Shown here: piece by piece, positions 14,307 through 38,405 of the stretch
How positions within the stretch are numbered: position 1 is the first letter of the stretch
Layout of the letters: each line of letters opens with the position of its first letter
NCBI GenBank assembly: GCA_947486575.1
Contig: CANKUB010000006.1
Span: 2,455 to 66,454, forward strand
Length of the DNA stretch: 64,000 nucleotides
DNA from: Betaproteobacteria bacterium
Lineage (GTDB): Bacteria > Pseudomonadota > Gammaproteobacteria > Burkholderiales > SG8-41
Direction: 5' to 3'
Made by a program: the position numbers and the translations under genes
Notes under the pieces: generated by a model
What the model saw: only the letters and a program-made list of their open reading frames with translations
Told to the model about the DNA's origin: nothing
Database searches by the model: none

Positions 14307-15296
14307 TCACTCTGGCTTTATACCTGCGACTTTGATCACACGTGCCCACTTTGCCAACTCGCTCTTGACGAGATTCGCCAGTTCGGCCTGTGTCCCCGTA
14401 TCCCCATCGAGACCTTGCGCATCCATGACAGATCTCGCTTCAGCGTTCGCGATATTTTTACGCGTGAGTTCGTTTAAACGGCTGACGATCGGTTGTGCCG
14501 TGCCCGCTGGCGCAAACAACGCGTTCCATGCGGTTACTTCATAACCGGCAATGCCGGACTCATCCACTGTTGGCACATCCGGCAATACCGACGAGCGCTT
14601 CGCCCCAGTAACGCCCAGCGCAATCAGCTTGCCTTGCTTGACATGTGGCACCACCGTCGTGCTGCCGAAAGTCAGCGCAATTTGCCCGCCCAGCAAATCC
14701 GGCATCACCTGTCCGGTGCCTTTGTAGGGAATATGTGCCAGCTTCACACCAGCCATGTGGCCAAACAATTCACCCGCAAGATGCGTACCGCTGCCTACAC
14801 CCACCGACGCAAAGTTGATTTGACCGGGTCGCACTTTCGCCAATGCAATCAATGACTTGACGTTGCGTGCTGGCAGCGATGGATGCGCCACCACAAAGAA
14901 CATGTACGACGATAGTTTTGAAATCGGTTCGAAATCCTTGACCGGATCGTAGCCCACTTTGCGCTGCAAGCTCGGATTAACCGTGATGCTGCTTTGAACA
15001 ATCAGCAACGTATATCCATCCGCCGGCGATTTGGCCACCAGTTCAACGCCAATCGAACCACCCGCACCCGGCCGGTTTTCAACGATGAATTGTTGCCCCA
15101 GATCGCCCGTCAGCGATTTGGCGAGCAATCGTGCCACCAGATCAAGTGAACCGCCCGGACTGAAGGGATTGATGATTCGCACGGGTTTAACCGGGTACGT
15201 CTGGGCGTTCACATGAATGCAGCTCAGTACGAGCGCTGCCGCCACACCACCTTGGACGCACCGGTGAAAAAATAATCGCAGCCTGCAATTTGCCAT
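14307..15296 (-). CDS. Bug/TctC-family periplasmic solute-binding protein
   Basis: Motifs YPVKPVRIINPFSPGGS, IVENRPGAGGS, ADGYT and C-terminal VAGIKPE. Confidence 0.9.
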   Translation of the reverse strand: MANCRLRLFFHRCVQGGVAAALVLSCIHVNAQTYPVKPVRIINPFSPGGSLDLVARLLAKSLTGDLGQQFIVENRPGAGGSIGVELVAKSPADGYTLLIVQSSITVNPSLQRKVGYDPVKDFEPISKLSSYMFFVVAHPSLPARNVKSLIALAKVRPGQINFASVGVGSGTHLAGELFGHMAGVKLAHIPYKGTGQVMPDLLGGQIALTFGSTTVVPHVKQGKLIALGVTGAKRSSVLPDVPTVDESGIAGYEVTAWNALFAPAGTAQPIVSRLNELTRKNIANAEARSVMDAQGLDGDTGTQAELANLVKSELAKWARVIKVAGIKPE

Positions 15297-16982: not shown

Positions 16983-17954
16983 TTACTCCAGTTTGAGATT
17001 GATTTTACGAATCAGGTCACCCCATTTGCGCGCCTCAGACGTGCGGAATGCCTGAACATCTTCGACCGAGCTGCCGACCGCGCCGACGCCGATAGCGTAG
17101 AGCAAATCGCGTGTTTCAGGCGCGCGCAGCGAAGCAACCCATAACTTGTTGATGCGCTGAACAAGCTCGGGCGGGGTAGCGGCAGGCACGGCAACGCCGT
17201 ACCAGCTATCCGAGCGCAAGCTAAGGTAGCCCGACTCAGTGGTGGTGGGCACATTCGGCAATTGCTTGATACGCTCGTTGCTGCTTACCGCCAGCGCCCG
17301 CATCTTGCCAGATGGCAGATAACCAATCACCGCAGGAACATCGAACAGCGCCACTTCGACATGGCCGCCGATCAAATCAACGATGGCAGGCGCAGCACCC
17401 TTGTATTGCACGTTGGTCATCTTGATGCCGGCCGACATCTTGAATAGCTCCGTACCCAGATGAATGAGACCACCGACCCCGATGATCGATATATTCAACT
17501 GGCCGGGCCGCCGCGTCGCGAGCTGCGCAAGCTCCTGCATGTTTTTCACCGGCAGTGAAGGATGCACCACGAAAATCTGCGGTACTGACACCGCCTGCGT
17601 GACCAGACTGAGATCGCGGTCTGGATCAACCAGCGGCTTGGTATACAGATACTTCGTGAATGACAGGGTGCTGCCAGACGAAAACCAGCTGGTGTAGCCG
17701 TCCGGGGCCGATCGTGCAACGTAGTCACCGGCAATGAAGCCGTTCGCGCCGGGCCGATTTTCGACAATAATGTTTTGGCCACTAATGTCAGTCATTTTCT
17801 TACCGATGATACGAGTCATCGTATCGGCTGGCCCACCCGCCGGAAATCCAACCGCAATGCGCATGGGCTTCGACGGATAACTTTGCGAGTAAGTCTGCAT
17901 GCAAAACCCTTGCAACGCCAGCCCGGCCAGCATGGCTGTCTTCACTATCTTCAT
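16983..17954 (-). CDS. Bug/TctC-family periplasmic solute-binding protein
   Basis: Motifs YPSKPMRIAVGFPAGGPAD, IVENRPGANG and PDGYT. The start is chosen at ATG 17952-17954 (MKIVKTAML), 7 nt after GGAGGG. Alternative starts lie at 17960 and 17978. Confidence 0.88.
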   Translation of the reverse strand: MKIVKTAMLAGLALQGFCMQTYSQSYPSKPMRIAVGFPAGGPADTMTRIIGKKMTDISGQNIIVENRPGANGFIAGDYVARSAPDGYTSWFSSGSTLSFTKYLYTKPLVDPDRDLSLVTQAVSVPQIFVVHPSLPVKNMQELAQLATRRPGQLNISIIGVGGLIHLGTELFKMSAGIKMTNVQYKGAAPAIVDLIGGHVEVALFDVPAVIGYLPSGKMRALAVSSNERIKQLPNVPTTTESGYLSLRSDSWYGVAVPAATPPELVQRINKLWVASLRAPETRDLLYAIGVGAVGSSVEDVQAFRTSEARKWGDLIRKINLKLE

Positions 17955-18244
17955 CTGCATACCCTCCCCGGACGCCACACTCTAGCACGCGACTCGCATC
18001 CTCGATTCCTGCGCGGTTACTTCGTGACGAGGCGACCGCGCAAAGCAGCAATAATCCGCGTCACAGATGAGCGTCAAGCATAAGAGTCGAGGAAAAGGGT
18101 CTTTACAAGACTATCGTTTAGTGATTGTATAATCATTCAACAAAAACAATTACTTACGTTTTGCTTACTAGCGCGTGTAGCCGCTTTCTGGCGACACGCT
18201 GATAGTCCAGCGGCACCGTCAATGTTCAAACTCTGGAGACCCCT

Positions 18245-20227
18245 ATGTCGTCCGCCAATTCGTCTGCCATCGAATCCGTACTACACGAAAGCCGCGTATT
18301 CCCCCCGAGCGACGCTTTCGTCAAGCAAGCCAACATTTCCGGCATGGCGGCTTATCGAAAACTTTGCGCCGATGCAGAAAAAGATTTTGAAGGCTTCTGG
18401 GCGAATCTCGCACGCACGGAATTGCTATGGCAAAAGCCATTCACCCAGACACTCGACGAATCCCACGCACCGTTTTATAAATGGTTTCACGATGGCGAAC
18501 TGAATGCATCGTATAACTGTCTGGACCGGCATCTGAAAACGCAGCCGGACAAGGTCGCGATCATTTTCGAGGCGGATGACGGCAAGGTCAGCACCATCAC
18601 CTATCGTGAATTGCACCGTCAAGTCTGCGTGGCGGCGAATGGTTTGAAATCTCGCGGCATTAAACTGGGCGATCGCGTGATTGTGTATATGCCGATGTCG
18701 ATTGAAGCCGTGGTGTGCATGCAGGCTTGCGCGCGCATCGGCGCAATTCACTCAGTGGTATTCGGCGGCTTTTCCGCCAAGAGTTTACAGGAACGCATTA
18801 TCGATGCCGGTGCGGTGGCAGTACTGACGGCTGACGGGCAATTTCGCGGTGGGCGTGAGATTCCGTTAAAGCCTGCGGTGGATGAAGGGATAGCACTCGG
18901 CGGTTGCGAATCCATCCACAGCGTCGTGGTTTACAAGCGCACCGGCACCGCCGTTGCGTGGCATGAAAAGCGCGATGTGTGGCTGCATGATCTGGTGCTA
19001 GGCCAATCGGACGTTTGCGAACCCACCTGGGTGAACGCCGAGCATCCGCTGTTTATTCTGTACACCTCCGGCTCTACCGGCAAACCCAAGGGCATCCAGC
19101 ATTCCACCGGCGGCTATTTGCTGTGGACCATTCTGACAATGAAGTGGACCTTCGACTACAAGCCTGCCGACGTGTTCTGGTGTACGGCGGACGTGGGCTG
19201 GGTTACCGGCCACTCATACGTCTGCTACGGCCCGCTGGCGTGCGGCGCGACGGAAATTATTTTCGAAGGCGTGCCGGTTTACCCCGACGCCGGTCGTTTC
19301 TGGAAAATGATTCAAAATCATAAGGTTACGGTATTCTATACCGCACCGACCGCGATTCGCTCACTGATTAAAGCCGGTGGCGATTTACCGAAGCAATATG
19401 ATCTTGCGAGCCTGCGTATCCTCGGCACCGTGGGCGAGCCGATCAATCCTGAAGCCTGGATCTGGTATCACGAAACCGTTGGCGGCAGCCGCTGCCCGAT
19501 TGTGGACACGTGGTGGCAGACCGAAACCGGTGGTCACATGATCACGCCGCTGCCCGGCGCCACGCCGACCAAACCCGGCTCGGCAACCTTCCCGTTGCCC
19601 GGCGTGATCGCCGATATTGTTGATGAAACGGGCCAATCCGTTGGCAAAGGCAAAGGCGGCATACTGGTGATTAAAAAACCCTGGCCGTCGATGCTGCGCA
19701 CGATCTGGGGCGACCCGGAGCGTTTCAAAAAAACCTATTACCCGGAAGATTTTCAGGGCAAGTATTACCTCGCGGGCGATGGCGCAACCTACGATGACGA
19801 AGGCTACATCCGCATCATGGGGCGCATCGACGATGTGTTGAATGTGTCGGGCCATCGCCTCGGCACGATGGAAATCGAATCCGCACTGGTTGCGAACACA
19901 GCGTTAGTGGCAGAAGCCGCTGTGGTGGGCCGCCCCGATGATTTGACCGGTGAAGCGATATGTGCGTTCGTGGTACTAAAAGGCGCGCGGCCTACCGGCG
20001 ACGAAGCGAAAAAAATCATCAAGATATTGCAGGATTGGGTGGGCAAGGAAATCGGCGCGATTGCCAAGCCGCGCGACATACGCTTCGGCGACAACCTGCC
20101 GAAAACGCGCTCCGGCAAAATCATGCGGCGATTGCTGCGTTCCATCGCAAAAGGGGAAGAGATTACGCAGGATGTTTCCACGCTGGAAAATCCGGCGATA
20201 CTCGATCAGCTTAAACAAACCGTGTGA
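18245..20227 (+). CDS. acs: Acetyl-CoA synthetase (AMP-forming)
   Basis: The 660-aa product has the canonical Acs N-terminus, the AMP-binding motif [11 protein letters not shown], and C-terminal [13 protein letters not shown]. Confidence 0.95.
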
Positions 20228-20442
20228 ACGCCAGTCACATGAACCAGCCCAGCGAAAAAGGTCAACGCCTCGCGGCACTTTTCCTGCTGGGCGCGTTGCT
20301 ATTTAACTTTCCACTCTTGCAATTGTTTGCACGCGACGGCACGGTGCTGGGCGTGCCGCTACTCTACTGCTATGTATTTTGCGCCTGGGCTGCACTGATC
20401 GGGTTGATGGCGTGGGTAGTTGAGCATCGCAGCCGCGACTAG
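20224..20442 (+). CDS. Small two-TM membrane protein, translationally coupled to acs and preceding the SLC5-domain kinase
   Basis: The GTG at 20224 overlaps the acs TGA as GTGA; an alternative ATG lies at 20239. Two hydrophobic spans are visible: [20 protein letters not shown] and [21 protein letters not shown]. Confidence 0.6.
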
Positions 20443-20451
20443 GGAATCACC

Positions 20452-23187
20452 ATGCTAACCGGCGGCATCATCGTCGTCGCCTCGTTCGCCTACGTGGCGC
20501 TGCTGTTCGCCATCGCGGCGTACGGCGACAAGCGCGCGGACGCGGGCCGCAGCCTGATTGCCAACCCGTACATCTATGCGCTTTCTCTGGCCGTGTACTG
20601 CACGTCATGGACGTTTTACGGCAGCGTAGGGCGCGCCGCCACCGGAGGTATCGGCTTTCTGGCGATCTACATCGGCCCCACATTGATGGCCGCACTGTGG
20701 TGGTTTGTGCTGATGAAAATGATCCGCGTCAGCAAGGCCAATCGCATCACATCGATTGCCGATTTTGTCGCGTCGCGCTATGGCAAGAGCCAGTTGCTGG
20801 GCGGGCTGGTGACCATCATTGCAGTGGTGGGCATCATTCCCTACATCGCGTTGCAACTGAAAGCCATATCAACCAGCTTTTCCATCATCCTGCATTACCC
20901 CGGCGTTGCCATGCCGGAAAAAACCGGCGCGCAATTATTTGTGGGCGACAACACGTTTTATATCGCGATGATGCTGGCCGCGTTCACCATTCTGTTTGGC
21001 ACGCGCTATCTCGACGCTACGGAGCGTCACGAGGGCCTGGTTGCGGCGATTGCCTTTGAATCCGTAGTGAAGTTAGTCGCGTTCATCGCGGTGGGCGTGT
21101 TCGTGACCTACAGCATGTATGACGGATTCGCAGATATTTTCCAGCGCGCCAGTGCGAATCCGCAATTGAAGTTGCTGATGACGCTCGGTGGCGATTTTGG
21201 CAGCTATACCTCGTGGGCATCACTCACGATGCTGTCGATGTTCGCCATTCTATTTCTGCCACGCCAGTTTCAGGTGGCGGTAGTTGAGAATGTTGATGAG
21301 CGACATTTGAATAAAGCCATCTGGTTGTTCCCGCTGTATTTGCTGGCGATCAATATTTTTGTGCTGCCGATTGCACTCGGCGGCTTGATGCACTTTCCAA
21401 TGGGCGGCGTCGATGCCGATACCTTTGTGCTGACTTTGCCCATTTCACAGCAGCAGGCGTGGATCGCCATGCTGGCATTCGTAGGCGGCTTATCTGCCGC
21501 CACCGGCATGGTCATCGTTGAAACCATCGCGCTGTCCACGATGGTGTGTAACGATCTTGTGATGCCCTTGCTGCTGCGCACGCCAGGCCTGCGATTGGCA
21601 GAGCGGCATGATTTATCGCGCTTGCTGCTGGGCATACGGCGCGGTGCGATTGTGGGCATATTGACCCTCGGCTACGTTTATTTCTTTCTGGCAGGTGAGG
21701 CGTATGCCCTTGTTTCCATTGGATTAATTTCATTCTCTGCGGTAGCGCAATTTGCCCCTGTGATTATCGGCGGGCTGTTCTGGAAAGGCGGCACACGGCT
21801 GGGCGCGATCAGTGGATTGGGCGCGGGCTTTTGCGTGTGGCTGTATACCTTGCTGCTGCCGTCATTTGCAAAATCCGGCTGGATGCCCGTGATGTTTTTG
21901 TCGCAAGGCGCCTGGGGCATCGATCTGCTGAAGCCGCAGCAACTGTTCGGGCTGCAAGGGCTGGATGAAATTTCACACTGTCTGTTCTGGAGCATGCTGG
22001 TCAACATTGGCCTCTACATCACGATCTCGCTGCTACGCCGCCCGGATGCGGCCGAGCACACGCAAGCCACTTTGTTTGTCGACGCGACCGCACCGGCGCG
22101 AGTGAGTGGCTCGCGCTTCTGGCGCGGCACTGCGTCGCTGGATAGTCTGCTGGCATTGCTGGGCCGTTTTTTAGGGCCGGAGCGCGCACGCGAAGCCTTC
22201 ATCACCTACGCCCGAAGGCGCGGTGCGGAGACACTGGCCGCGCTGCCGCCCGACGCCGACACGGTGCATCACGCCGAATCGCTGCTCTCCGGCGCCATCG
22301 GCAGCGCCAGCGCACGTGTGATGATTGCCTCGGTGGTTGAGGAGGAACCGCTCGGCATCGGCGAAGTCATGCACATCATTGACGAAGCCTCGCAAGTGCT
22401 GGCGCACAGCCGCCAGCTTGAACGTCAATCGCGCGAACTCGAAGCCGCCACCAATGAGCTGCGCAGCGCCAATCTGCGGCTGACCGAACTCGATCAACTG
22501 AAAGACGATTTTATTTCCACGGTCACGCACGAGCTGCGCACACCGTTGACCTCGATACGCGCGTTCTCCGAAATCCTGCGTGACAACCCGGCGCTGGATT
22601 TGCCGCAACGTGAAAATTTTCTCGGCATCATCATTCGTGAATCGGAGCGGCTTACACGTCTGATCAATCAGGTGCTTGATCTTGCCAAACTCGAATCCGG
22701 CGGTGGTGAATGGCAAACCATCCCGTTTGATTTACGCGATGTCATTGATGAATCGCTGCATGCCACCAGCCAATTGTTCAAGGACAATGGGGTTAGCGTG
22801 GAAACCACTTTGCCCCCAACCGCACCAGAATTGCTAGCCGACCGTGATCGCGTGATGCAAGTCATGCTCAATCTCTTGTCGAATGCCGCAAAATTCTGTA
22901 CGCCGCAGCAAGGCCGCGTACACGTAACCCTGCACCAAGAAGTAACTGCATTGCGTGTTGATGTCGCCGACAACGGCATCGGCATCCACATTGAAGATCA
23001 AGCCGTCATCTTCGACAAATTCCGTCAGGCCGGCGACACGCTCACTGAAAAACCCAAAGGCAGCGGATTGGGTTTAGCCATCTCGCGACAGATCGTTGAA
23101 CACCTCGGCGGCAAACTATGGGTCACCAGCGTAGCGGGTGCAGGCGCTACTTTTTCGTTCACCTTACCCTTGCCGCAGCAGCGATGA
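20452..23187 (+). CDS. Sensor histidine kinase with an N-terminal sodium:solute-symporter (SLC5/SSF) domain (CbrA/CrbS-like architecture, no receiver domain)
   Basis: The 911-aa product has about 540 aa of multi-TM SSF-like sequence. This is followed by a STAC-like linker (SLDSLLALLGRFLGPERAREAF...AESLLSGAIGSASARVMIA), the H-box FISTVTHELRTPLTSI, N-box LLSNAAKF, G1 DNGIGI and G2 GSGLGL. Confidence 0.9.
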   Translation: MLTGGIIVVASFAYVALLFAIAAYGDKRADAGRSLIANPYIYALSLAVYCTSWTFYGSVGRAATGGIGFLAIYIGPTLMAALWWFVLMKMIRVSKANRITSIADFVASRYGKSQLLGGLVTIIAVVGIIPYIALQLKAISTSFSIILHYPGVAMPEKTGAQLFVGDNTFYIAMMLAAFTILFGTRYLDATERHEGLVAAIAFESVVKLVAFIAVGVFVTYSMYDGFADIFQRASANPQLKLLMTLGGDFGSYTSWASLTMLSMFAILFLPRQFQVAVVENVDERHLNKAIWLFPLYLLAINIFVLPIALGGLMHFPMGGVDADTFVLTLPISQQQAWIAMLAFVGGLSAATGMVIVETIALSTMVCNDLVMPLLLRTPGLRLAERHDLSRLLLGIRRGAIVGILTLGYVYFFLAGEAYALVSIGLISFSAVAQFAPVIIGGLFWKGGTRLGAISGLGAGFCVWLYTLLLPSFAKSGWMPVMFLSQGAWGIDLLKPQQLFGLQGLDEISHCLFWSMLVNIGLYITISLLRRPDAAEHTQATLFVDATAPARVSGSRFWRGTASLDSLLALLGRFLGPERAREAFITYARRRGAETLAALPPDADTVHHAESLLSGAIGSASARVMIASVVEEEPLGIGEVMHIIDEASQVLAHSRQLERQSRELEAATNELRSANLRLTELDQLKDDFISTVTHELRTPLTSIRAFSEILRDNPALDLPQRENFLGIIIRESERLTRLINQVLDLAKLESGGGEWQTIPFDLRDVIDESLHATSQLFKDNGVSVETTLPPTAPELLADRDRVMQVMLNLLSNAAKFCTPQQGRVHVTLHQEVTALRVDVADNGIGIHIEDQAVIFDKFRQAGDTLTEKPKGSGLGLAISRQIVEHLGGKLWVTSVAGAGATFSFTLPLPQQR

Positions 23188-23555
23188 GCCAACGCATACT
23201 GATCGCCGAAGACGATCATAATATATTGATTTCAATAGACTTTTTATTAAAGGCCGCGGGCTATACCGTATTGACCGCCAGCGACGGCGTGAGCGCTTGG
23301 GCAGCACTCGAAGATCAACGTCCGGATTTAGTCGTGCTCGACATTATGCTGCCCGCGCTGGATGGCTACGAATTGTGCAAACGCGTGCGCGCCACACCTG
23401 CGCTGCAAGCGATAAAAGTGGTGATGTTAAGCGCGCGCGGGCGCGAAGCCGAAATTGAAAAGGGTTTGCAATTGGGCGCTGACGCCTACCTGCGAAAACC
23501 GTTTGGCACGCGCGAATTGCTGGATACCATTGCGCGCTTGCTGGCAGCAGCTTGA
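23184..23555 (+). CDS. Single-domain (REC-only, CheY-like) response regulator
   Basis: Its ATG overlaps the kinase stop as ATGA. The 123-aa product contains IAEDD, DLVVLDIMLP (phospho-acceptor Asp) and YLRKPF, with no output domain. Confidence 0.9.
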   Translation: MSQRILIAEDDHNILISIDFLLKAAGYTVLTASDGVSAWAALEDQRPDLVVLDIMLPALDGYELCKRVRATPALQAIKVVMLSARGREAEIEKGLQLGADAYLRKPFGTRELLDTIARLLAAA

Positions 23556-23607
23556 TACTGTTACCGCGCCGGATTCCCATGCAGTCAATTCAGTTTTTAC
23601 AGCAGCC

Positions 23608-24597
23608 ATGAAACCCATGATAGTCGCGTTACTGTTGGCCGTATTTTCGGCAGCCGCCACGCCCGCGCTGTCCGCGCAGCCTGTGAACGATACGGCTGTC
23701 AGCTATCCCTCAAAACCAGTACGCTGGGTCGTGGGTTTTGCGCCCGGCGCCTCCAACGATATTGTCGCCCGCACCATCAGCGCGCGCCTCGGCGAAGCTT
23801 GGGGCCAGCAGTTCATCATTGACAACCGCACCGGCGCAGCAGGCATGATCGGTGGCGAGATCGTCGCGCGCTCCGTGCCGGACGGCTACACGCTGCTGCT
23901 CGCAACCGGCGGGCCGAACACCATTGCCCCGCTGCTCACGCGCAAGCCCGTGTATCGCGTGGAGGATTTCGACTACGTGTCGGTGATGGCCTATACGCCG
24001 CTCATCATCGCGGTGACACCGTCGTTTGCACCGAAAACACCGCGCGACCTGGTAGAACATCTGAAGGCAAATCCCGGCAAAACAAACTGGGGCTCGGCGG
24101 GCGTCAACAGCAGCCCGCACGTGGGGTTTGCAAGCTTTACGCACGCCACTGGAACGCGCGCGACGCATGTGCCATATAAGGGCGCAGCGGTGGCACTCAT
24201 TGATGTGGCCAGCGGACAGATCGACGCGATACACACCACCGCAGCATCCGCCGAAGCGGCAGTTCGCAGCAATCGCGTGCGCGTGATCGCGGTGGCGGGG
24301 CCAAAGCGCGTGCCGGTAATTCCAGATGTGCCGACGCTCGTCGAATCCGGCATAAAAGGCGGCGACTCGCTGGTGTGGTTTGGCATGGCCGTGCCGCTGA
24401 AGACACCGCCAGTCATCGTGCGCAAGCTCAACGCGGGCGTCACCAATGCCCTCGCCATTCCGGAAGTTCAGCGTCGCCTGACCGATCTGGGCATGGAGAT
24501 CGTCGGTGGCTCACCCGAAGCAGCGGCAAAATTCGTGCGCGACGAAGCTGGACGGATACGTAGCCTGATCAAGGCCGGGGTGCTGAAGCAGGAGTAG
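23608..24597 (+). CDS. Bug/TctC-family periplasmic solute-binding protein
   Basis: The track ORF is trimmed to ATG 23608 (MKPMIVALLLAVFSAAATPALSA). Motifs YPSKPVRWVVGFAPGASND, IIDNRTGAAG and PDGYT are present. Confidence 0.9.
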   Translation: MKPMIVALLLAVFSAAATPALSAQPVNDTAVSYPSKPVRWVVGFAPGASNDIVARTISARLGEAWGQQFIIDNRTGAAGMIGGEIVARSVPDGYTLLLATGGPNTIAPLLTRKPVYRVEDFDYVSVMAYTPLIIAVTPSFAPKTPRDLVEHLKANPGKTNWGSAGVNSSPHVGFASFTHATGTRATHVPYKGAAVALIDVASGQIDAIHTTAASAEAAVRSNRVRVIAVAGPKRVPVIPDVPTLVESGIKGGDSLVWFGMAVPLKTPPVIVRKLNAGVTNALAIPEVQRRLTDLGMEIVGGSPEAAAKFVRDEAGRIRSLIKAGVLKQE

Positions 24598-24795
24598 CGA
24601 CGATCAGGTATAAGCATGCAATGCGTTTTATCAGGTTTCGCGTTCCGCCATTCATGGACGATCAAAATGATGAAAACCATAGTATCTAAAAACCGGGTGA
24701 CACTGGACTTTTTGCGGCGCCACTAGCGGTGCAAATCAGGGTTTTTGCGCTGCCGTAACGAACAGCGAATAACGAAATTAGCTGAAAGGGCGAAC

Positions 24796-26190
24796 ATGAA
24801 TAAAGTCGTAACCTCGGCCGAGCAGTCCATCGCGGACATGCCTGACGGCGCTACCGTTGCGTTGTCGGGCTTTGGTCTTGGTCACCGGTTTCCCAACACG
24901 CTGTTGCAGGCGCTGCGCCACCAAGGCACAAGGCAACTCACGCTGGTGTGCAATTCCCTGGGCAACGCGGGCGAGAAAGGCCAGTTGCTGGTGGAAAACA
25001 AGCAGGTCAAAAAGATCCTCGCGTCGTTCTCCGTGCGCCCCGGCACGCGCACACCTGCGGAAACGCAGATCATCGCGGGCGAGTTGGAGGTGGAGCTGAT
25101 TCCGCAGGGCATTCTGGTCGAACGCTGCCGCGCGGGCGGCGCGGGAATTCCGGCCTTCTATTCGCCGACCGCTGCCGACACCGAGCTGGCTATAGGCAAG
25201 GATATGCGCTACTTCAACGGCAAGGCGCATGTGCTGGAACACGCCATACACCTGGATTACGCACTGCTGAGCGGCTATCGCGCCGACCGCGCGGGCAATG
25301 TGCAATTTCGCGGCGGCGCGCGCAATTTCAATCCGTCGTTCGCCAAGGCCGCGCGCGTGGCAATTATCGAAGTGGATGAAATCGTCGAGACTGGCGAGAT
25401 ACCGTCTGAGTTGATCGATCTGCCCGGCATCTTCATCGACCGCGTGGTGCAGAACACGCATTTCATCGACGCGCGCAAACTGTCGCGCAGCGGCAAGCGT
25501 GCGGCGGATACCGCGCGCAGTTATCTCGGCAAGCCGGGCCTGACCCGTGCCGCCATCTCCCGCAACGCCGCGAAAATCGTGCGCAACGACAGTTACGTCA
25601 ATCTCGGCACCGGCATTCCCACCGAGGTTTCCAATTACCTTGAGGGCCGCGGCGTGTGGCTGCACGCGGAGAACGGCGTGCTCGGTTACGGCGGCACTGT
25701 CACCGGCGACGCCATCGACCCCGACGTGTTCAACGCTGGCGGCCAGTTTGTGCAACCCATCGCGGGCACGTCCTACTTCGACAGCGTTACCTCCTTCGAG
25801 ATGGCGCGCGGCGGCCATATCGACACCGTTATCCTTGGCGCTTATGAAGTCGATCAGGATGGCAACGTCGCCAACTGGAGTCTCGCTGACGCCAAACGCG
25901 GCGGCATCGGCGGCGCGATGGATTTGGTGGCAGGCGATGCCGAATTGATTATCGTGCTGGAGCACCGCGACAGCAAAGATCGACCCAAGCTGCGCAAGCA
26001 TTGCACTTTTCCGCTGACGGCACGTCGGCGCGTCAACTGGGTGGTCACTGATCTCGCCGTGCTGCACTGGGTGGACGGGCGTTTTGTGCTGGAGGCCGTG
26101 GCGCCCGGATTCACTTCCGAAGACATTGTTGCGCTGACGGAAATGGAATTTGCCGTAGCGCCCACACTGGCGATCATGGAAACAGCCTGA
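24796..26190 (+). CDS. 3-oxoacid CoA-transferase family protein with fused A and B subunits
   Basis: It starts MNKVVTSAEQSIADMPDGATVALSGFG (subunit A). The second half carries the subunit-B catalytic motif HAENGVLGYG (E-N-G). Confidence 0.85.
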   Translation: MNKVVTSAEQSIADMPDGATVALSGFGLGHRFPNTLLQALRHQGTRQLTLVCNSLGNAGEKGQLLVENKQVKKILASFSVRPGTRTPAETQIIAGELEVELIPQGILVERCRAGGAGIPAFYSPTAADTELAIGKDMRYFNGKAHVLEHAIHLDYALLSGYRADRAGNVQFRGGARNFNPSFAKAARVAIIEVDEIVETGEIPSELIDLPGIFIDRVVQNTHFIDARKLSRSGKRAADTARSYLGKPGLTRAAISRNAAKIVRNDSYVNLGTGIPTEVSNYLEGRGVWLHAENGVLGYGGTVTGDAIDPDVFNAGGQFVQPIAGTSYFDSVTSFEMARGGHIDTVILGAYEVDQDGNVANWSLADAKRGGIGGAMDLVAGDAELIIVLEHRDSKDRPKLRKHCTFPLTARRRVNWVVTDLAVLHWVDGRFVLEAVAPGFTSEDIVALTEMEFAVAPTLAIMETA

Positions 26191-26299
26191 TCTCACTGTG
26201 GGAATAATGCAGTTAAATCACCAGGAGCAGTCGATGAAACGATCACCTTTGATTCTGAGCGTGCCGATGCTGTGCGCCCGTCTGTCGCTGCATGCACTG

Positions 26300-26652
26300 G
26301 CCGTGATCGGGCTGCTGCCATCCGGCAGGGTGCGCCCGCTTGCGGTGACCAGCGCGCAGCGCGTGCCTCAACTGCCCACAGTGCCCACGACAAGCGAAGC
26401 GGGATTTCCCGCCGTGCGCTCGGAGGGCTGGTACGCGTTTGTGGCGCCGGTAGCAACACCGACGGAAACGCTAAGCCGGGCGCGCCAGTTGATCACGGCG
26501 GCGCTGCGTGCGCCGGATACGCGCGAACGCCTCAATAGCATCGCCGCGATGCCCGTCGGCAACACGCCCGATGAACTGCGTGTCTTTTGGCGCGCTGAGA
26601 GCCTTTTAAGTGGGGCGAGTTAATCAAGGCGATTGGCCTCAAGCCTGAATAG
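26300..26652 (+). pseudogene. Bug/TctC-family gene remnant (C-terminal third only, frameshifted)
   Basis: The ORF 26198..26623 encodes only LPSGRVRPLAVTSAQRVPQLPTVPTTSEAGFP...WYAFVAPVATP...PDELRVF, which is the Bug C-terminal lobe. The usual ending KWGELIKAIGLKPE-stop is in a different frame at 26608-26652. No signal peptide or N-lobe is present. Confidence 0.75.
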
Positions 26653-26761
26653 GCACAGCCGCAGGGTCAATAGGCATTCCAATCTGTAACTTATTGATTT
26701 TATTGAAATTATTTTGATCAAATCATGAGCGCATACAATACAAGTCAGGAGGCATCGCACG

Positions 26762-27910
26762 ATGAGTATCAAAGGCAAAGCCTATATCGGGGGAATTTAC
26801 GAACACCCCTCGCGCAAGATCGACAACAAGTCGATTGCAGAGCTTCACACGGAATGTGCCAAGGGTGCGCTGGACGACGCGGGTCTGACGTTCAAGGATG
26901 TTGACGCCTATTTCTGTTCCGGCGATGTGCCCGGCTTGGGCGCACTCAGCATGCCCGACTACATGGGGCTGACCGTCAAGCGACAGGACTCCACCAATAC
27001 CGGCGGTTCCTCTTACCTGTTTCACGTCGGCCATGCCGCCGAGGCGATTGCCGCCGGTAAATGCAAAGTGGTTCTCATCACTTGCGCGGGCTTCGGTCGC
27101 CGTGGCACAGCGGTGCGTGAACGCGGCGGACCCGATGCGCCGTTTGAATATCCCTATGGCCCGGTGACGGTGAATCTGTATGCCATGGCGGCGCGGCGCC
27201 ACATGCACGAGTACGGCACCACCAGCGAGCAACTGGCGTGGGTCAAGGTTTCGGCCTCGCACCACGCCCAGCACAATCCCCATGCCTTTCTGAAAAAGGT
27301 TGTGACGGTTGAAGACGTGCTCAACTCGCCGATGATTGCCGATCCACTGCACCGCATGGATTGCTGTGTGGTAACCGACAGCGGCGGCGCGGTGCTGGTG
27401 GTGGCGCCGGAAATCGCGCGACAACTGAAAACACCCAGGGTCAAACTGATCGGTCAGGGCGAATCGTCCAAAGGCCAGATGGGTGGCCATGTCGATCTGA
27501 CGTACACCGGCGCGGTGCGCTCCGGCCCCGTCGCTTTCGCCGAAGCGGGCGTCACACCCGCCGACATCAAATATGCCTCCATCTACGACAGCTTTACCAT
27601 CACCGTGGTGGAAACTATCGAAGACCTTGGGTTCTGCAAAAAGGGCGAAGGCGGCAAGTTTGTGTCCGATGGCAACCTGATTTCCGGTGTGGGCAAGCTG
27701 CCCTTCAATACCGACGGCGGCGGCATGTGCAACAACCATCCGGTCAATCGCGGCGGCATTACCAAAATTATCGAGGCAGTGCGGCAACTGCGCGGTGAGG
27801 CTCACCCGAAAGTACAAGTTAAAAATTGCGATATCGCGCTTGCTCACGGCACCGGCGGTTCACTCGGCACGCGGCACAGCAGCGCAACCATGATCATGGA
27901 AAGGGAGTAA
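26762..27910 (+). CDS. Thiolase-like (SCP-x/Ltp-type) protein lacking the nucleophilic Cys
   Basis: The 382-aa product has the family motifs PLHRMDCCVVTDSGGA, YDSFT, NTDGGGM and AHGTGGS. The segment aligning with the thiolase C-x-S-G nucleophile loop reads TNTGGSSYL. Confidence 0.8.
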   Translation: MSIKGKAYIGGIYEHPSRKIDNKSIAELHTECAKGALDDAGLTFKDVDAYFCSGDVPGLGALSMPDYMGLTVKRQDSTNTGGSSYLFHVGHAAEAIAAGKCKVVLITCAGFGRRGTAVRERGGPDAPFEYPYGPVTVNLYAMAARRHMHEYGTTSEQLAWVKVSASHHAQHNPHAFLKKVVTVEDVLNSPMIADPLHRMDCCVVTDSGGAVLVVAPEIARQLKTPRVKLIGQGESSKGQMGGHVDLTYTGAVRSGPVAFAEAGVTPADIKYASIYDSFTITVVETIEDLGFCKKGEGGKFVSDGNLISGVGKLPFNTDGGGMCNNHPVNRGGITKIIEAVRQLRGEAHPKVQVKNCDIALAHGTGGSLGTRHSSATMIMERE

Positions 27911-27915
27911 TACGA

Positions 27916-28320
27916 ATGGCTACTGCATATCAGGACAGAAAAATCCCGGTCGCGCCGCTCAACGCGGGAGATGCGCCGTTTTTTGAAGGTGCTGCAGCGG
28001 GCAAGCTGATGGTGAAGTACTGCAACGACTGCAAGCAATACCACCACTATCCACGGCCGATGTGCCCGTTCTGCTACTCGACCCACACCGAGTGGCGGCA
28101 GGCCAGGGGCACGGGCGTGGTCTACAGTTTCAGCATTTCGCGCGCAACAGGGCCGATTCCCTACGCGATAGCGTACGTGACGCTGGACGAAGGCCCGACC
28201 ATCATGACCAACATCGTTGAGACTGATCTCGACACCATCCAGTGCGGACAAAAGGTGACGGTGGTGTTCAAGCCCACCGAAGATCCCAAACTTGCGGTAC
28301 CCATGTTCAAGCCCGCCTAG
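27916..28320 (+). CDS. DUF35-type Zn-ribbon/OB-fold protein
   Basis: The 134-aa product starts at ATG 27916. It has the four-Cys ribbon CNDCKQYHHYPRPMCPFC followed by an OB-like region (GVVYSFSI...YVTLDEGPTIMTNI). It sits between two thiolase-like genes. Confidence 0.8.
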   Translation: MATAYQDRKIPVAPLNAGDAPFFEGAAAGKLMVKYCNDCKQYHHYPRPMCPFCYSTHTEWRQARGTGVVYSFSISRATGPIPYAIAYVTLDEGPTIMTNIVETDLDTIQCGQKVTVVFKPTEDPKLAVPMFKPA

Positions 28321-28337
28321 ATCAAGAGGATTTCACG

Positions 28338-29492
28338 GTGACCATCAAAGGCAAAGCCTATATCGGCGGGATTTTCGAGCACCCCGCCCGCAAGCTCGGC
28401 AACGATATTTCGCAGGCCGAGCTGCATGCACAGTGCTCAAAGGGCGCGCTGGAAGACGCTGGTCTTTCGTTCAAGGATGTTGACGGTTATTTCGGCGCGG
28501 GTGACATCCCCGGCGGACTTCTGAGCATGGTGGATTATCTAAACCTGACTGTAAGGCATCTCGATCAGACTTACACCGGCGGTTCTTCGTACCTTTACCT
28601 CGTAGCACACGCTGCCGAGGCCATCGCGGCAGGCAAATGCAGCGTCGCCCTTATTTCGCTGGCTGATTTCGGCCGTCGCGGCACGGCAGTACGCGACCGT
28701 GGCGAGGGCATAGCCGAGCAACCTTTTGAATATCCTTTCGGCCCCGTTACGGTGAACCTGTACGCCATGGCGGCGCAGCGCCACATGTATCAATATGGCA
28801 CCACCAGCGAGCAACTCGCGCAGGTCAAGGTGGCGGCTTCGCACCATGCGCAGTGGAACCCCAACGCCGTAATCCGGAAAGTCTTGACCACCGAAGACGT
28901 ACTCAATTCACCGATGGTCGCCGACCCGCTGCACCGCATGGACTGCTGTGTGGTGACCGATGGCGGCGGTGCGGTCGTCGTAGTTTCGCCGGAAATCGCC
29001 AGACAATTGAAAAAACCCAAGGTCAAGCTGATTGGCGTCGGCGAATCATCCAAAGACCAGATGGGCGGCAAGATAGACCTGACCTACACCGGCGCAGTGC
29101 GCTCCGGCCCCATCGCTTTCGCCGAAGCGGGCGTCACACCCGCCGACATCAAATACGCCTCCATCTACGACAGCTTCACCATCACCGTGGTGGAAACTAT
29201 CGAGGACCTGGGTTTCTGCAAAAAGGGCGAGGGCGGCAAGTTTGTGTGCGACGGCAACTTGGTCTCCGGCGTGGGCAAGCTGCCCTTCAACACCGACGGC
29301 GGCGGCATGTGCAACAACCATCCGGGCAACAAAGGCGGCATCACCAAAGTCATCGAGGCCGTGCGCCAGTTGCGCGGCGAGTCCCATCCCAAAGTGCAGG
29401 TCAAGAACTGCGACATCGCGCTGGCCCACGGCACCGGCGGCTCACTTGGTACGCGCCATGGCAGTGCTACGCTGATTATGGAACGTGAATAG
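28338..29492 (+). CDS. Thiolase-like (SCP-x/Ltp-type) protein lacking the nucleophilic Cys; tandem paralog of 26762..27910
   Basis: The GTG start at 28338 is preceded by AAGAGGA (VTIKGKAYIGGIFEHP, compared with MSIKGKAYIGGIYEHP in the paralog). It has the same motif set and also carries TYTGGSSYL at the nucleophile loop. Confidence 0.8.
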   Translation: MTIKGKAYIGGIFEHPARKLGNDISQAELHAQCSKGALEDAGLSFKDVDGYFGAGDIPGGLLSMVDYLNLTVRHLDQTYTGGSSYLYLVAHAAEAIAAGKCSVALISLADFGRRGTAVRDRGEGIAEQPFEYPFGPVTVNLYAMAAQRHMYQYGTTSEQLAQVKVAASHHAQWNPNAVIRKVLTTEDVLNSPMVADPLHRMDCCVVTDGGGAVVVVSPEIARQLKKPKVKLIGVGESSKDQMGGKIDLTYTGAVRSGPIAFAEAGVTPADIKYASIYDSFTITVVETIEDLGFCKKGEGGKFVCDGNLVSGVGKLPFNTDGGGMCNNHPGNKGGITKVIEAVRQLRGESHPKVQVKNCDIALAHGTGGSLGTRHGSATLIMERE

Positions 29493-29508
29493 CCTCCGTG
29501 GACCGGTC

Positions 29509-30516
29509 ATGAGCGTCTTGCAGCGCGCAGTTAGCATCCTGAACCGTTACGTCATTGCCGTCTGCCTCATTGGCTTGACCGCCACCACGGTGGCAGCCGC
29601 TACGGCTGAACGCGAGCAATATCCAAACCGCTCGATTCGCCTGGTAAATCCCTTCGCGCCGGGCGGTATCGTTGACACCTCGGTGCGCGCAGTCCTGCCG
29701 CATGTGGTGCAAGCCTGGGGGCAGCAGGTTGTTGTCGATAATCGGCCGGGTGCAGGCACCAATATTGGCACGGAAATCGTGGTGCGGGCGCCACCCGATG
29801 GCTACACGTTGTTGGCGACGACGGGTTCGCTCTCGACCAACCCGAACTTCTACCCCAAGCTCTCGTTCAAGCCCACACGCGATCTCGCGCCCGTCATTCT
29901 GCTTGCGCAAACTTCTGGCGCGCTGGCCATTCACACGGGTGTGTCAGCGAAAACTTTGCCAGAGTTCATTGCGCTGGCACGCACACAACCGGGTCAGCTC
30001 ACAGTGGCGTCGGCGGGTACCGGTACCTCCACGCATTTATCCATCGAATTACTGAAATCGCTGGCGAAGATTGACGTCGTGCATGTGCCATTCAAAGGTG
30101 GTGGTGGGGGCATCGTCGGCGTTATGGGCGGGCAACTTGCTGGCGTAATGACGGTACTCACGCTGGTGTTGCCGCATCATAACGCCGGCAAGGTGCGCAT
30201 CCTGGCGGTGACGACAACTACGCGCAGCCCATTGGCGGGCGACATCCCCACCTTTGCCGAGGCGGGTGTTCCCGGCTATGAGGCGGCTGCCTGGGTGGGC
30301 CTGTTCGCCCCGCGTGCCACGCCCCAGCCCGTACTCCGAAAATGGAATGCCGAGATTAACCGGATTATCCGCGAGCCTGAAGTGATAGAGCGTTTCAAGG
30401 CGACTGGCCTGATCGCGCGTGGCGGCAGCGAACAGGAATTGAGCGCCTACTTCCTGAAGGAAACTGAACGCTGGGCGGCTGTGATCAAGGCCGCTAATAT
30501 TGCGATCAACCCCTAG
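29509..30516 (+). CDS. Bug/TctC-family periplasmic solute-binding protein
   Basis: It starts MSVLQRAVSILNRYVIAVCLIGLTATTVAAATA. Motifs YPNRSIRLVNPFAPGGIVD, VVDNRPGAGT and PDGYT are present. The ATG at 29509 is preferred over the GTG at 29485. Confidence 0.88.
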   Translation: MSVLQRAVSILNRYVIAVCLIGLTATTVAAATAEREQYPNRSIRLVNPFAPGGIVDTSVRAVLPHVVQAWGQQVVVDNRPGAGTNIGTEIVVRAPPDGYTLLATTGSLSTNPNFYPKLSFKPTRDLAPVILLAQTSGALAIHTGVSAKTLPEFIALARTQPGQLTVASAGTGTSTHLSIELLKSLAKIDVVHVPFKGGGGGIVGVMGGQLAGVMTVLTLVLPHHNAGKVRILAVTTTTRSPLAGDIPTFAEAGVPGYEAAAWVGLFAPRATPQPVLRKWNAEINRIIREPEVIERFKATGLIARGGSEQELSAYFLKETERWAAVIKAANIAINP

Positions 30517-30542
30517 TCGATACCATGCGATACCACTGCGAG

Positions 30543-31211
30543 CTAAGCCGCATGATCAATCACATACCCCCGCCCATAATGCGTGCGCACCTCCACCCCT
30601 GAACCGGCGAGTTTTTTGCGCACGCGATGGATATAAACTTCAATCGCGTTGTGGCTGACTTCTTTGTCGTAGTTGTATAGCTGCTCCACCAACTGTTCTT
30701 TACTCACCACACGGCCAAATCGCCGCAGCAGAATTTCCAGCACACCGGCTTCGTGCAGCGACATTGGCAGCGGTTTGCCGGCCACACTGGCCACACGGCC
30801 CACGGTATCAAAGATCAATTCCCCGTATTGCAGGGTGGGCGTTGCTACGCCAGTGCCACGCCGCAGCAATGCGCGCACGCGCGCCTGTAACTCACTCAGG
30901 CTGAAGGGCTTAACCAGATAATCATCAGCACCCAGATCCAGTCCGGCGACTTTTTCCTCGGGCTGCTCTCGGCCCGATAAAATCAACACGGGCAGTGAGG
31001 TATTGCGTTTGCGCAGCCGCCGCAGTACCTCAAGACCATCAATTTTGGGCAATCCCAGATCAAGTATCAGCAGCGCAAAATTATCGCTCTTGAGCGCCTC
31101 ATCCGCAGCAAGCCCGTGCGCCACATGGTCCACCACATAGCCCGCCTGCGTCAGCGAAAACCGCAGCGCTTCTGACAACGCGGTGTCATCCTCTGCAATC
31201 AGTATGCGCAT
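30543..31211 (-). CDS. OmpR/PhoB-family response regulator (REC plus winged helix); no adjacent kinase
   Basis: It starts MRILIAEDD and contains LLILDLGLPKIDG and YLVKPF. The C-terminal wHTH reads NAIEVYIHRVRKKL...GRGY. Confidence 0.92.
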   Translation of the reverse strand: MRILIAEDDTALSEALRFSLTQAGYVVDHVAHGLAADEALKSDNFALLILDLGLPKIDGLEVLRRLRKRNTSLPVLILSGREQPEEKVAGLDLGADDYLVKPFSLSELQARVRALLRRGTGVATPTLQYGELIFDTVGRVASVAGKPLPMSLHEAGVLEILLRRFGRVVSKEQLVEQLYNYDKEVSHNAIEVYIHRVRKKLAGSGVEVRTHYGRGYVIDHAA

Positions 31212-31501
31212 GCTCCCCTCCAGAAATTCCTTTCAAAATTGCTGTGCCGCAACAAATTCAGCACTTGGCGACATCTTGTAACTTGTTGTTTTTATTATAT
31301 TTTTACCACATTCCGCACGTTCGTCAGTATGCGGCATTCACATAAAAGTTCAGGTTTCTGTAAGTAACTTCCATTACGATCATTGTGCTCCAAGCGGGCG
31401 TCTGCAAACACGGCACCCGTTTGATCAAGGCTTCTAATAACCAATACTGTAACGGGTCTTGAGCATTTGATAAATCAGTTCATTCAACCAAGGAGGGTTC
31501 C

Positions 31502-31768
31502 ATGCAACCTAGCGTAAAACACCAGGAATACTGGCGAAAAAATCTGGTCATCACCGCAATATTGCTGGCAATCTGGTTTGTTGTCACGTTTATCGAGGGC
31601 TGGTACGCACGTGAGTTGAACAGCATGACGTTCCTCGGCTTTCCACTGGGCTTTTACATGTCCGCACAGGGATCGCTGGCAATTTATGTCGTGATTATCG
31701 GCGTCTATGCCCTCTACATGAAAAAACTCGACAAAGAATTCGGCGTTGATGAAGGAGACCTCGAATGA
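31502..31768 (+). CDS. DUF4212-type small membrane subunit of a sodium:solute symporter
   Basis: The 88-aa, two-TM product is preceded by AAGGAGG. Its stop overlaps the start of the SSS permease as ATGA. Confidence 0.8.
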   Translation: MQPSVKHQEYWRKNLVITAILLAIWFVVTFIEGWYARELNSMTFLGFPLGFYMSAQGSLAIYVVIIGVYALYMKKLDKEFGVDEGDLE

Positions 31769-33840: not shown

Positions 33841-33855
33841 TCGTTGTTGGCTATC

Positions 33856-33887
33856 AACAAAGCCCGCTTCGGCGGGCTTTGTTTTTG
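33856..33887 (+). terminator. Rho-independent terminator after the SSS permease
   Basis: The stem is AAAGCCCGC / GCGGGCTTT with a TTCG loop, followed by GTTTTT (33859-33886). Confidence 0.85.
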
Positions 33888-33902
33888 GACTAAAATCCCC
33901 CA

Positions 33903-38277: not shown

Positions 38278-38405
38278 CTTGCGCTAACTATCATCAGCTT
38301 GCCCGTCTACCAAAGCGGGGCTTGCGCTGTGCGCCGCAGCGTGCCAGACGCGCTTGCCGCACACACCGTCAGTCTGTTCGTTTCGCAATTCGAGAAGGTG
38401 CATAC

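Follow-up and report, generated by a model that had tools for sequence, protein, structure and literature searches.

The window analysed here is a stretch of 64,000 nucleotides (nt) from a Betaproteobacteria bacterium of the order Burkholderiales (GenBank assembly GCA_947486575.1, contig CANKUB010000006.1, positions 2,455 to 66,454 of the forward strand); positions given below count from its first letter. It carries an operon headed by acs, the gene for acetate-CoA ligase, which continues with the genes of a small membrane peptide, a sensor histidine kinase with an SLC5-like domain and a stand-alone receiver (REC-only protein). An OmpR-type response regulator and a divergent symporter operon lie farther to the right. 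The region is most likely the left half of a conserved island of uncultured Burkholderiales that serves the use of acetate or other short-chain monocarboxylates. Its core features are the following (aa, amino acids; bp, base pairs).

18102-18133, plus strand: putative core promoter 5' of acs, with TTTACA at 18102-18107, a 17-nt spacer ending in TGn, and TTGTAT at 18125-18130 overlapping TATAAT at 18128-18133.
18153-18168, minus strand: direct repeat GTAAG-N6-GTAAG with an 11-bp period in the acs leader region (pattern match).
18245-20227, plus strand: acs, which opens the operon and encodes acetate-CoA ligase, 660 aa (984 bits to the TIGR02188 equivalog, cut-off 725).
20224/20239-20442, plus strand: CbrX-like membrane peptide with two hydrophobic helices, 72 aa from GTG or 67 aa from ATG.
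20452-23187, plus strand: sensor histidine kinase, 911 aa, with an SLC5-like region of 13 transmembrane helices (about 1-530), STAC (about 555-650), a coiled coil, HisKA (684-750) and HATPase (797-908).
23184-23555, plus strand: stand-alone receiver, 123 aa, of class II (see below), with Response_reg at residues 5-116 and nothing else.
30543-31211, minus strand: OmpR-family (TctD-like) response regulator, 222 aa, REC plus Trans_reg_C (TctD model, 243 bits, cut-off 337).
31349-31380, plus strand: predicted footprint of the symporter promoter, with TTCAG-N6-GTAAG at 31349-31364, 10 nt, and a TACGAT -10 box at 31375-31380.
31502-31768, plus strand: DUF4212 protein, small symporter subunit (PF13937; TIGR03647, 105 bits, cut-off 26).
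31765-33840, plus strand: VC_2705-family sodium/solute symporter, 691 aa (TIGR03648, 779 bits, cut-off 321), conserved beside the regulator.

The genes of the acs operon are packed tightly. The acs stop codon TGA (20225-20227) overlaps a GTG start at 20224-20226 as GTGA; an in-frame ATG at 20239, 11 nt past the acs stop, is an alternative start of the small open reading frame (ORF) and the choice of the gene callers in sister contigs. This ORF ends at 20442, leaving a 9-bp gap before the kinase ATG at 20452, and the kinase stop (23185-23187) overlaps the REC-only ATG at 23184 as ATGA. The REC-only gene ends at 23555, and the ATG of a Bug receptor gene follows at 23608 after a 52-bp gap. These four junctions had been reported from the letters of the window (hereafter the sequence-only reading), and all were confirmed from the ORF map and the raw sequence. 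With 0-11 nt between acs and the peptide ORF in the window, there is no space for a promoter or terminator. A consensus scan found no terminator-like site at the acs, peptide, kinase and REC junctions, and the scan of 17900-34100 for sigma-70 promoter and terminator consensus sequences gave nothing above chance. The genes of the DUF4212 protein and the symporter overlap by 4 nt, the two-subunit arrangement of VC_2705-type symporters.

A genomic scan with one genome per species yielded 28 loci with full-length-type relatives of the kinase (kinase-sampled loci; individual loci are cited by L numbers). The proteins of the window were mapped onto these loci to compare gene order. Reciprocal sampling via the OmpR-type regulator gave three orthologs on long contigs, with 77-82% identity, and three sister contigs (L051, L052, L053) are about 99% identical to the window. 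The acs gene is 81-94% identical in the modules of relatives and lies directly 5' of the peptide-kinase-REC unit in 13 of the 17 kinase-sampled loci with enough upstream sequence to be informative. The stop-start overlap of acs and the peptide gene recurs in five relatives (L001, L006, L012, L017 and L020), and the gap is 30-114 nt in others. That the genes are packed together by accident, with acs separately regulated and the kinase genes transcribed from an internal promoter, is extremely improbable in view of the spacing in the window, the overlap in five relatives, the 13 of 17 loci and the lack of terminator-like sites above chance, even if a few loci are arranged in ways that would suit it: L005 and L021 have a palindrome of about 95 nt between acs and the peptide gene, a GC-rich hairpin takes this place in L007 and L008, acs is 4.5 kb distant in L014, and in Cupriavidus it lies downstream of the kinase cluster. 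The palindrome (L005 9683-9796, L021 2315-2411) is near-perfect, with -55 to -62 kcal/mol, and REP- or MITE-like; it could attenuate read-through. Taken together, acs, the small membrane ORF, the receiver-less SLC5-type kinase and the REC-only gene form a tight and evolutionarily conserved unit, as the sequence-only reading had proposed.

The kinase matches HisKA with 72 bits and HATPase with 103 bits and contains the H-box motif HELRTPL. No Response_reg domain was matched, and the protein stops three residues past HATPase; no PAS domain was matched either, with only about 35 residues of coiled coil between STAC and the H-box. Domain searches thus bear out that the kinase lacks a receiver and that the adjacent regulator lacks an output domain. 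Pfam (SSF included) and NCBIfam gave no match on the N-terminal part of this kinase even at E<=10, so the SLC5 call is drawn from PDB and pairwise homology; some close homologs do match PF00474. Residues 8-474 match the SLC5-STAC chain of CbrA (10ED_A, E=5e-68), and with a profile built from 50 homologs the match reaches residue 588 (E=1.7e-78) and enters the STAC domain of CbrA, up to CbrA residue 550. The entry 10ED is the cryo-EM structure of a CbrX-CbrA SLC5-STAC fragment from Pseudomonas putida (PMC13022988).

Over residues 2-655 the kinase aligns colinearly, at 43% identity, to a MxtR/CrbS-type hybrid kinase of P. aeruginosa (1159 aa, SLC5-STAC-PAS_7-HisKA-HATPase-REC, PAS_7 at 644-758). 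The STAC region, about residues 555-650, aligns unbroken to its counterpart. Past about residue 655 the MxtR-type protein enters PAS_7, whereas the window kinase passes directly to the coiled coil and H-box. Its transmitter is 31% identical to that of MxtR and finds its best NCBIfam matches in PnpS, WalK and PhoR. The partners of PnpS, WalK and PhoR kinases are OmpR-family regulators, and a PhoR/WalK-like transmitter fits a partner of that family. An AlphaFold2 model of the kinase, made from a shallow alignment of 50 sequences that are all at least 75% identical, was poor (pLDDT 55, pTM 0.33), with helices 563-629 at pLDDT 70-83, and Foldseek recovered the DHp-CA core only (HK853, WalK). By sequence, with SLC5 and STAC regions followed by HisKA and HATPase, the protein is assigned to the SLC5/STAC sensor kinases. 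Of the domains proposed in the sequence-only reading, HisKA, HATPase and REC stood by Pfam, SSF did not, and SLC5/STAC stood through homology only. Kinases of this compact architecture are common: among the best 150 representatives (50% identity clusters), at least 68 are 850-960 aa long, and many align end to end. In the relatives the kinase is 76-87% identical to the window copy.

The small ORF between acs and the kinase has no Pfam or NCBIfam match, even at E<=10. A motif that includes ...G(I/L)PLLY.Y.F and the two-helix hairpin are kept from Burkholderiales to Paracoccus, and the gene stands directly 5' of the kinase in every relative compared, down to Paracoccus. The same layout, a small gene for two transmembrane helices immediately before the kinase, is that of CbrXA, where the two-helix peptide CbrX, whose translation is coupled to that of the kinase, is bound to the SLC5 domain of CbrA (PMC13022988). 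Sequence similarity between the peptide and CbrX was not detected; the likeness is therefore an analogy, and homology is not claimed.

Comparison of gene order assigns the OmpR-type regulator to this unit. The recurring order is acs, peptide, kinase, REC, convergent OmpR-type regulator, and divergent DUF4212 plus sodium/solute symporter. Regulator orthologs, 73-91% identical to the gene at 30543, lie a few dozen bp past REC in L001-L004, L006, L009, L022, L025 and L026, and not more than 4.5 kb from the kinase-REC end in L005, L007, L008, L010, L011, L017, L019 and L021, which makes 17 loci; for L021, tblastn did not recover the REC gene itself. The regulator-sampled loci show the same module, with the regulator adjoining and convergent in all three. 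Exactly one histidine kinase and exactly two receiver-containing genes are present in the 64-kb window. No kinase of the regulator's own was found in any of the roughly 20 loci or up to 30 kb away from it in the window, and the only regulators in the module are the REC-only and the OmpR-type protein, with no GerE-domain regulator among its genes.

In the window the regulator is separated from REC by an insertion of 7 kb (23608-30516, plus strand) that is lineage-specific and outside the conserved module. None of the relatives at <=87% kinase identity has this insertion between REC and regulator; the sister contig L051 has it. The sequence-only reading had called the regulator an orphan, had brought it in tentatively, and had left the route from sensor to promoter unexplained. 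Its tentative use of the regulator is now strongly supported by the conserved synteny and by the fact that this is the sole other REC gene in the window. The regulator is the usual third partner of the module and thus no orphan, and the route is hardly a puzzle any more, the regulator being only displaced by the insertion. The Bug receptor gene at 23608, which had been counted as part of the system, falls away: no relative has it there, and it is the first gene of the insertion. The Bug-like genes of L005 and L011 are on the opposite strand and only 35-37% identical to the window Bug.

The sequences upstream of the two operons are conserved in part. The block CTTTACA-N(11-12)-TTTA(G/A)TG-N-TT-NN-AT recurs in each of the 14 compared regions upstream of acs, as well as in L046-L048, and is predicted to be the acs promoter. 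The pattern [GT]T[AC]AG-N6-GTAAG has 28 matches in 427 kb (the window plus relatives), and 25 of them are upstream of acs or in the intergenic region between regulator and DUF4212. Upstream of DUF4212 in 17 loci, GTTCAGGATTTTGTAAG, 10 nt and TAnnAT are nearly invariant, and the flanks diverge; a good -35 box was not found at the symporter promoter. Such spacing, an 11-bp-period direct repeat with 10 bp between it and the -10 box, is that of PhoB/OmpR-type activation. The regulator is accordingly a candidate for binding to the repeat of the symporter promoter. Direct control of acs by the same protein is plausible from the pattern matches, and it is less secure than control of the symporter because the position and strand of the acs repeat vary by clade.

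Two further elements were seen in these leaders. An AT-rich motif, GTAAGTAWTTGTTTTT, common to the acs and regulator leaders, was considered as a marker of the regulon and rejected, with eight occurrences in the window against 0.36 expected. Of its copies (<=3 mismatches; at 431, 9831, 18142, 26686, 31278, 44510, 54106 and 62646, three of them exact), some lie in 5' untranslated regions, two in the coding starts of Bug signal peptides and one between convergent genes, and unrelated intergenic regions are among the sites; dispersed repeat, leader element and protein-binding site are all conceivable. The DUF4212 leader contains a conserved hairpin at about 31425-31462. Its stem has 7 bp (AAGACC/GGTCTT, for which some loci have AAGCC/GGCTT), AAC/AAU triplets abound in its loop of roughly 20 nt (CCAACAACAAUAC), and a U-rich tract often comes after it. 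The hairpin recurs in L002, L005, L009, L011, L017, L019, L021, L025, L026 and L046, with compensatory changes in four of seven pairs, and could serve as an Hfq/(ARN)n site or as an attenuator.

Several relatives carry two more genes. In L007, L008, L010, L017 and L019, genes for an RNase T-domain protein and a CBS-DUF294 nucleotidyltransferase lie between REC and the regulator. The RNase T domain is C-terminal, and an N-terminal PAS domain was detected in the homologs of L018 and Paracoccus and, weakly, of Cupriavidus. No exonuclease or DUF294 gene was found in the window. The regulons of CrbS/R and MxtR/ErdR comprise acs, an acetate symporter, a CBS-DUF294 protein and an RNase T exonuclease (PMC5715377, PMC9927547), and in Pseudomonas CrbS/R (MxtR/ErdR) acts directly on the genes for the latter two (pp_0354/pp_0353, Pflu5625) as well as on acs and actP. 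The same gene families occur inside the module of the relatives, so that its gene company is that of the known acetate or short-chain-acid switch. According to fitness data, DUF4212 symporters are tied to a neighbouring member of the exonuclease/DUF294 pair and to the use of lactate and D-alanine; the signal need not be acetate alone.

The deeper relatives have the peptide, kinase, REC and exonuclease, and often DUF294. On plasmid 1 of Paracoccus denitrificans PD1222 (L044, 624884-631784), the genes for CBS-DUF294, an 81-aa peptide, the SLC5 kinase, REC and the PAS-RNase T exonuclease all overlap, and no DNA-binding regulator is nearby. The order on a Cupriavidus necator plasmid is peptide, kinase, REC, exonuclease, DUF294, acs. 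The REC gene was most likely coupled ancestrally to the PAS-RNase T exonuclease and CBS-DUF294 nucleotidyltransferase genes directly after it, both of which the lineage of the window has lost.

The stand-alone receiver is intact at its catalytic positions (D10/D11, D53, S83 and K105). With the receiver of the OmpR-type regulator it shares 42% identity, and OmpR-family receivers are its best family matches. No significant similarity was found between it and the receivers of MxtR-type and Azospirillum hybrid SLC5 kinases; on that ground the idea of a split hybrid, with the REC-only protein as a detached CrbS receiver, was rejected. The REC-only protein diverges fastest of the set, with 50-79% identity to the window copy compared with 76-87% for the kinase and 73-91% for the regulator. 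Two classes can be told apart: the exonuclease gene accompanies class I receivers in 13 of 15 loci and is missing beside class II receivers, among them that of the window, in 13 of 13. The receivers of L022 and L048 are intermediate. The class follows the presence of the exonuclease/DUF294 pair and not kinase phylogeny; L003 and L017, for example, share 91% identity in the kinase and 51% in the receiver.

A nonsense polymorphism (Q96*) affects this gene in the population of the window. Codon 96 (23469-23471) is CAA in the window and TAA in the three sister contigs (L051 4880-5167; L052 and L053 12733-13020), which show a single further base difference over 437 nt, silent in two of the three. 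The 95-aa form of the receiver is recorded on 24 contigs and the full-length 123-aa form on 15, which suggests that the REC-only protein is dispensable. In Vibrio cholerae the fused receiver of CrbS is not needed for acs expression and its deletion raises it; a phosphate sink with direct transfer from the kinase histidine to CrbR was proposed by the authors (PMC5436829).

These observations bear on how the receiver might work. The sequence-only reading had offered a phosphorelay or a phosphate sink. A His-Asp-His-Asp phosphorelay from the kinase through the REC-only protein and an Hpt protein to the OmpR-type regulator would be a split form of the relay once assumed for hybrid CrbS/MxtR. The translational coupling of REC to the kinase, the fused receiver of the hybrid relatives, and the persistence of the peptide-kinase-REC trio from Burkholderiales to Paracoccus, wherever the locus extends past the kinase, all speak for it. 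An obligatory relay is nevertheless very unlikely because the conserved module has no Hpt-like gene, its only unassigned ORFs being a tetratricopeptide repeat (TPR) protein and a 96-aa membrane protein, and because the Q96* allele, common in the window's own population, would break it. The expendable CrbS receiver of V. cholerae and the lack of significant similarity to hybrid SLC5-kinase receivers count in the same direction. Of the two options the relay is thus set aside in its obligatory form, and the sink stands as plausible.

Another reading takes the REC-only protein as the sole true partner of the kinase, acting through protein contacts in the manner of CheY or DivK; the OmpR-type regulator would then be served by some other kinase and be a neighbour because it controls the symporter. 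The deep relatives, with peptide, kinase, REC and exonuclease/DUF294 genes and no DNA-binding regulator close by, and the co-variation of receiver class with that pair instead of the kinase, would both be accounted for. With the exonuclease and DUF294 genes gone, the receiver has no evident partner in the window, where moreover its nonsense allele suggests dispensability; added to this are the missing kinase for the regulator in about 20 loci and within 30 kb, and a transmitter of the type that fits OmpR-family partners. We regard this reading as unlikely.

The receiver could instead be a decaying remnant without function, left after the loss of the exonuclease/DUF294 genes, in which case the system would be a plain two-component pair. 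Its rapid divergence relative to kinase and regulator in the same loci, the association of the classes with the presence or absence of the exonuclease and the frequency of Q96* are what decay would produce. Class II receivers, however, keep every catalytic residue and are 61-81% identical across many lineages, with ATGA coupling to the kinase in about six loci (gaps of 7-64 nt in the others); these features indicate purifying selection, and the window's own copy is intact. A remnant is for these reasons rather doubtful.

The best explanation would combine the pieces as follows; we infer its signal, phosphotransfer partners, DNA binding and sink role from sequence. A complex of the kinase, a CrbS/MxtR-type sensor, and the CbrX-like peptide would sense a short-chain acid, acetate or one related to it, or else the transport or metabolism of that acid. 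The kinase would autophosphorylate and pass the phosphoryl group directly to the OmpR-family regulator (30543-31211). This would activate the divergent DUF4212/VC_2705 symporter operon through the 11-bp-period direct repeat that stands in place of a -35 box, and probably the acs operon as well. With acs, kinase and REC on a single transcript, as the model has it, induction would also yield more sensor (positive feedback), and Acs would consume the inducer (negative feedback). The stand-alone receiver would compete for the phosphoryl group of the kinase as a non-essential modulator, or phosphate sink. We give this explanation as a whole, direct transfer to the OmpR-type regulator with the receiver as a sink, a probability of roughly 60%.

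Several points weigh against it. The pairing of kinase and regulator is drawn from synteny and family-level logic only, and a by-eye comparison of the alpha-1 helices of the REC-only protein and the regulator receiver showed no notable likeness. The deeper relatives (Paracoccus, Cupriavidus and several metagenome-assembled genomes) have no DNA-binding regulator near the kinase. In the fitness data VC_2705-type symporters are linked to lactate and D-alanine, not to acetate. The GTAAG repeat in the acs leader of the window is on the minus strand and downstream of the -10 box, and part of it overlaps the dispersed motif GTAAGTAWTTGTTTTT; in other clades it lies about 50 nt upstream of the -35 box, its position and orientation vary by clade, and in L003, L017 and L046 about 44 nt separate it from a divergent signal recognition particle (SRP) RNA gene, counted to the 5' end of that gene. 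Finally, the hairpins between acs and the peptide gene in some relatives mean that co-transcription or read-through may be attenuated there.

The island is comparable to several known systems. The resemblance to CrbS/CrbR (MxtR/ErdR; Vibrio, Pseudomonas, Sinorhizobium), already noted in the sequence-only reading, is borne out by the sensor, 43% identical and colinear over about 655 residues of SLC5-STAC, and by the gene company: acs, a monocarboxylate symporter and, in relatives, the CBS-DUF294 and RNase T exonuclease genes. The extra receiver also seems dispensable in both. Unlike CrbS, the window kinase lacks PAS_7 and a fused receiver and has a PhoR/WalK-like transmitter, only 31% identical; its extra receiver has a gene to itself and lacks homology to that of CrbS. 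The partner belongs to the OmpR family and not, like CrbR/ErdR, to the LuxR family, the putative operator is a direct repeat instead of an ACTU inverted repeat, and acs shares an operon with the kinase.

CbrXA/CbrB of Pseudomonas (10ED) also has a non-hybrid kinase with a coupled two-helix peptide gene directly upstream, and its SLC5 domain is homologous (E=1.7e-78), including a lysine equivalent to CbrA K196. It differs in the PAS domain of CbrA, in its partner, the sigma-54 activator CbrB, in the sensing and transport of histidine by CbrA, and in its output, catabolite repression via CrcZ; it has neither a stand-alone receiver nor a link to acs. In RpuS/RpuR of Sinorhizobium fredii, an SLC5/STAC kinase controls an adjoining pyruvate symporter via a direct repeat in the promoter (PMC9100948); there, RpuS is a hybrid with PAS and REC, RpuR is LuxR-type, and the target is MctP and not a DUF4212/VC_2705 symporter. 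The likeness to TctE/TctD is that the window regulator is of the OmpR family and that TctD is the best of the curated models (243 bits). That score is below the cut-off of 337, no TctE kinase or tctCBA operon adjoins the regulator, and the regulator is always syntenic with the SLC5 kinase cluster and the DUF4212 symporter.

Sinorhizobium meliloti CheY1 and Caulobacter LovR are single-domain receivers that act as phosphate sinks. By analogy, the window receiver may be of this kind, as it too stands alone, is encoded with a kinase that would also serve another regulator, and is seemingly dispensable. The difference is that its receiver class co-occurs ancestrally with the exonuclease/nucleotidyltransferase pair, a hint at an output role in other lineages. 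In the searchable literature, the coverage of which is incomplete, only CbrA/B, CrbS/R (MxtR/ErdR), RpuS/R and PrlS/R are treated among these kinases, and nothing was found on the compact architecture, an OmpR-type partner or Betaproteobacteria. The island is an uncharacterised variant of the CrbS/CrbR acetate switch and not a new principle.

The remaining genes between REC and the regulator, and those that follow the symporter, are listed here.

23608-24597, plus strand: Bug, matching TctC, first gene of the insertion.
24745-26190, plus strand: fused 3-oxoacid CoA-transferase (insertion).
26198-26623, plus strand: Bug (TctC) fragment, 141 aa, matching only profile positions 163-247 (insertion).
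26762-27910, plus strand: thiolase-like protein (insertion).
27826-28320, plus strand: DUF35 OB-fold protein (insertion).
28242-29492, plus strand: thiolase-like protein (insertion).
29485-30516, plus strand: Bug (insertion).
33903-34457, plus strand: TPR protein, 184 aa, following the symporter in most relatives.
34471-34761, plus strand: conserved membrane protein, 96 aa, at the end of the symporter operon.
34809-34900, plus strand: tRNA-Ser(GGA), the conserved right border of the island; the same tRNA follows the module in L017 and L046.

The Bug fragment at 26198-26623 is probably a pseudogene and is also found in the sister contig L051. At least six Bug genes are present in the window besides the one at 23608-24597. 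Their density is very high, with six full-length copies (14307-15296 and 16983-17978, both on the minus strand; 23608-24597, 29485-30516 and 38061-39389; 39435-40403, minus strand) and the fragment in about 26 kb. The copies are interspersed with CoA-transferase, thiolase-like, MmgE/PrpD and amidohydrolase genes, as is typical of Bug expansions in Burkholderiales. Two long antisense ORFs of 472 and 374 aa (24778-26196, minus strand, opposite 24745-26190; and 26723-27847, minus strand, opposite 26762-27910) have no family matches and were rejected as genes; they are taken as artefacts of base composition. A search with Rfam at the gathering threshold found only a tRNA in the window. In L003 (7490-7588), L017 (7473-7571) and L046 (16223-16321), the SRP RNA gene ffs is divergent from acs, beside dnaX-ybaB-recR. 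The window has Bug, glutathione S-transferase (GST) and hydrolase genes in its place, which shows that the left flank of the island is rearranged as well.

For the evolution of the module we propose, with hesitation since it is clearly less probable than not, that peptide, compact kinase and receiver are an old core, widespread in Alpha- and Betaproteobacteria, the ancestral output of which was post-transcriptional via the exonuclease and the nucleotidyltransferase. The OmpR-type regulator would have been recruited later, in one clade of Burkholderiales, giving a pathway with two branches. The window would then represent the end state after loss of the old branch, with the receiver drifting towards a sink or a pseudogene. 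The Paracoccus unit, located in a model organism, makes the core module tractable for tests.

SLC5/STAC transceptor kinases have so far been studied chiefly in Gammaproteobacteria and a few Alphaproteobacteria. The island extends the logic of the acetate switch to abundant uncultured Burkholderiales, in which it appears to be wired differently: acs is hard-wired to its own sensor, a CrbS/MxtR-like sensor is joined to a PhoR/WalK-like transmitter, the regulator is OmpR-type and not LuxR-type, and the receiver is a separate gene. It also illustrates how an insertion can move a partner away so that it looks like an "orphan" regulator. Of what is left, the co-variation of the receiver with the exonuclease/DUF294 pair and the natural nonsense allele are of most interest. 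Related lineages with and without the pair make its function directly testable, and the Q96* receiver-null alleles, which occur naturally beside the intact allele in one population, do the same for the idea that the receiver may be a phosphate sink.

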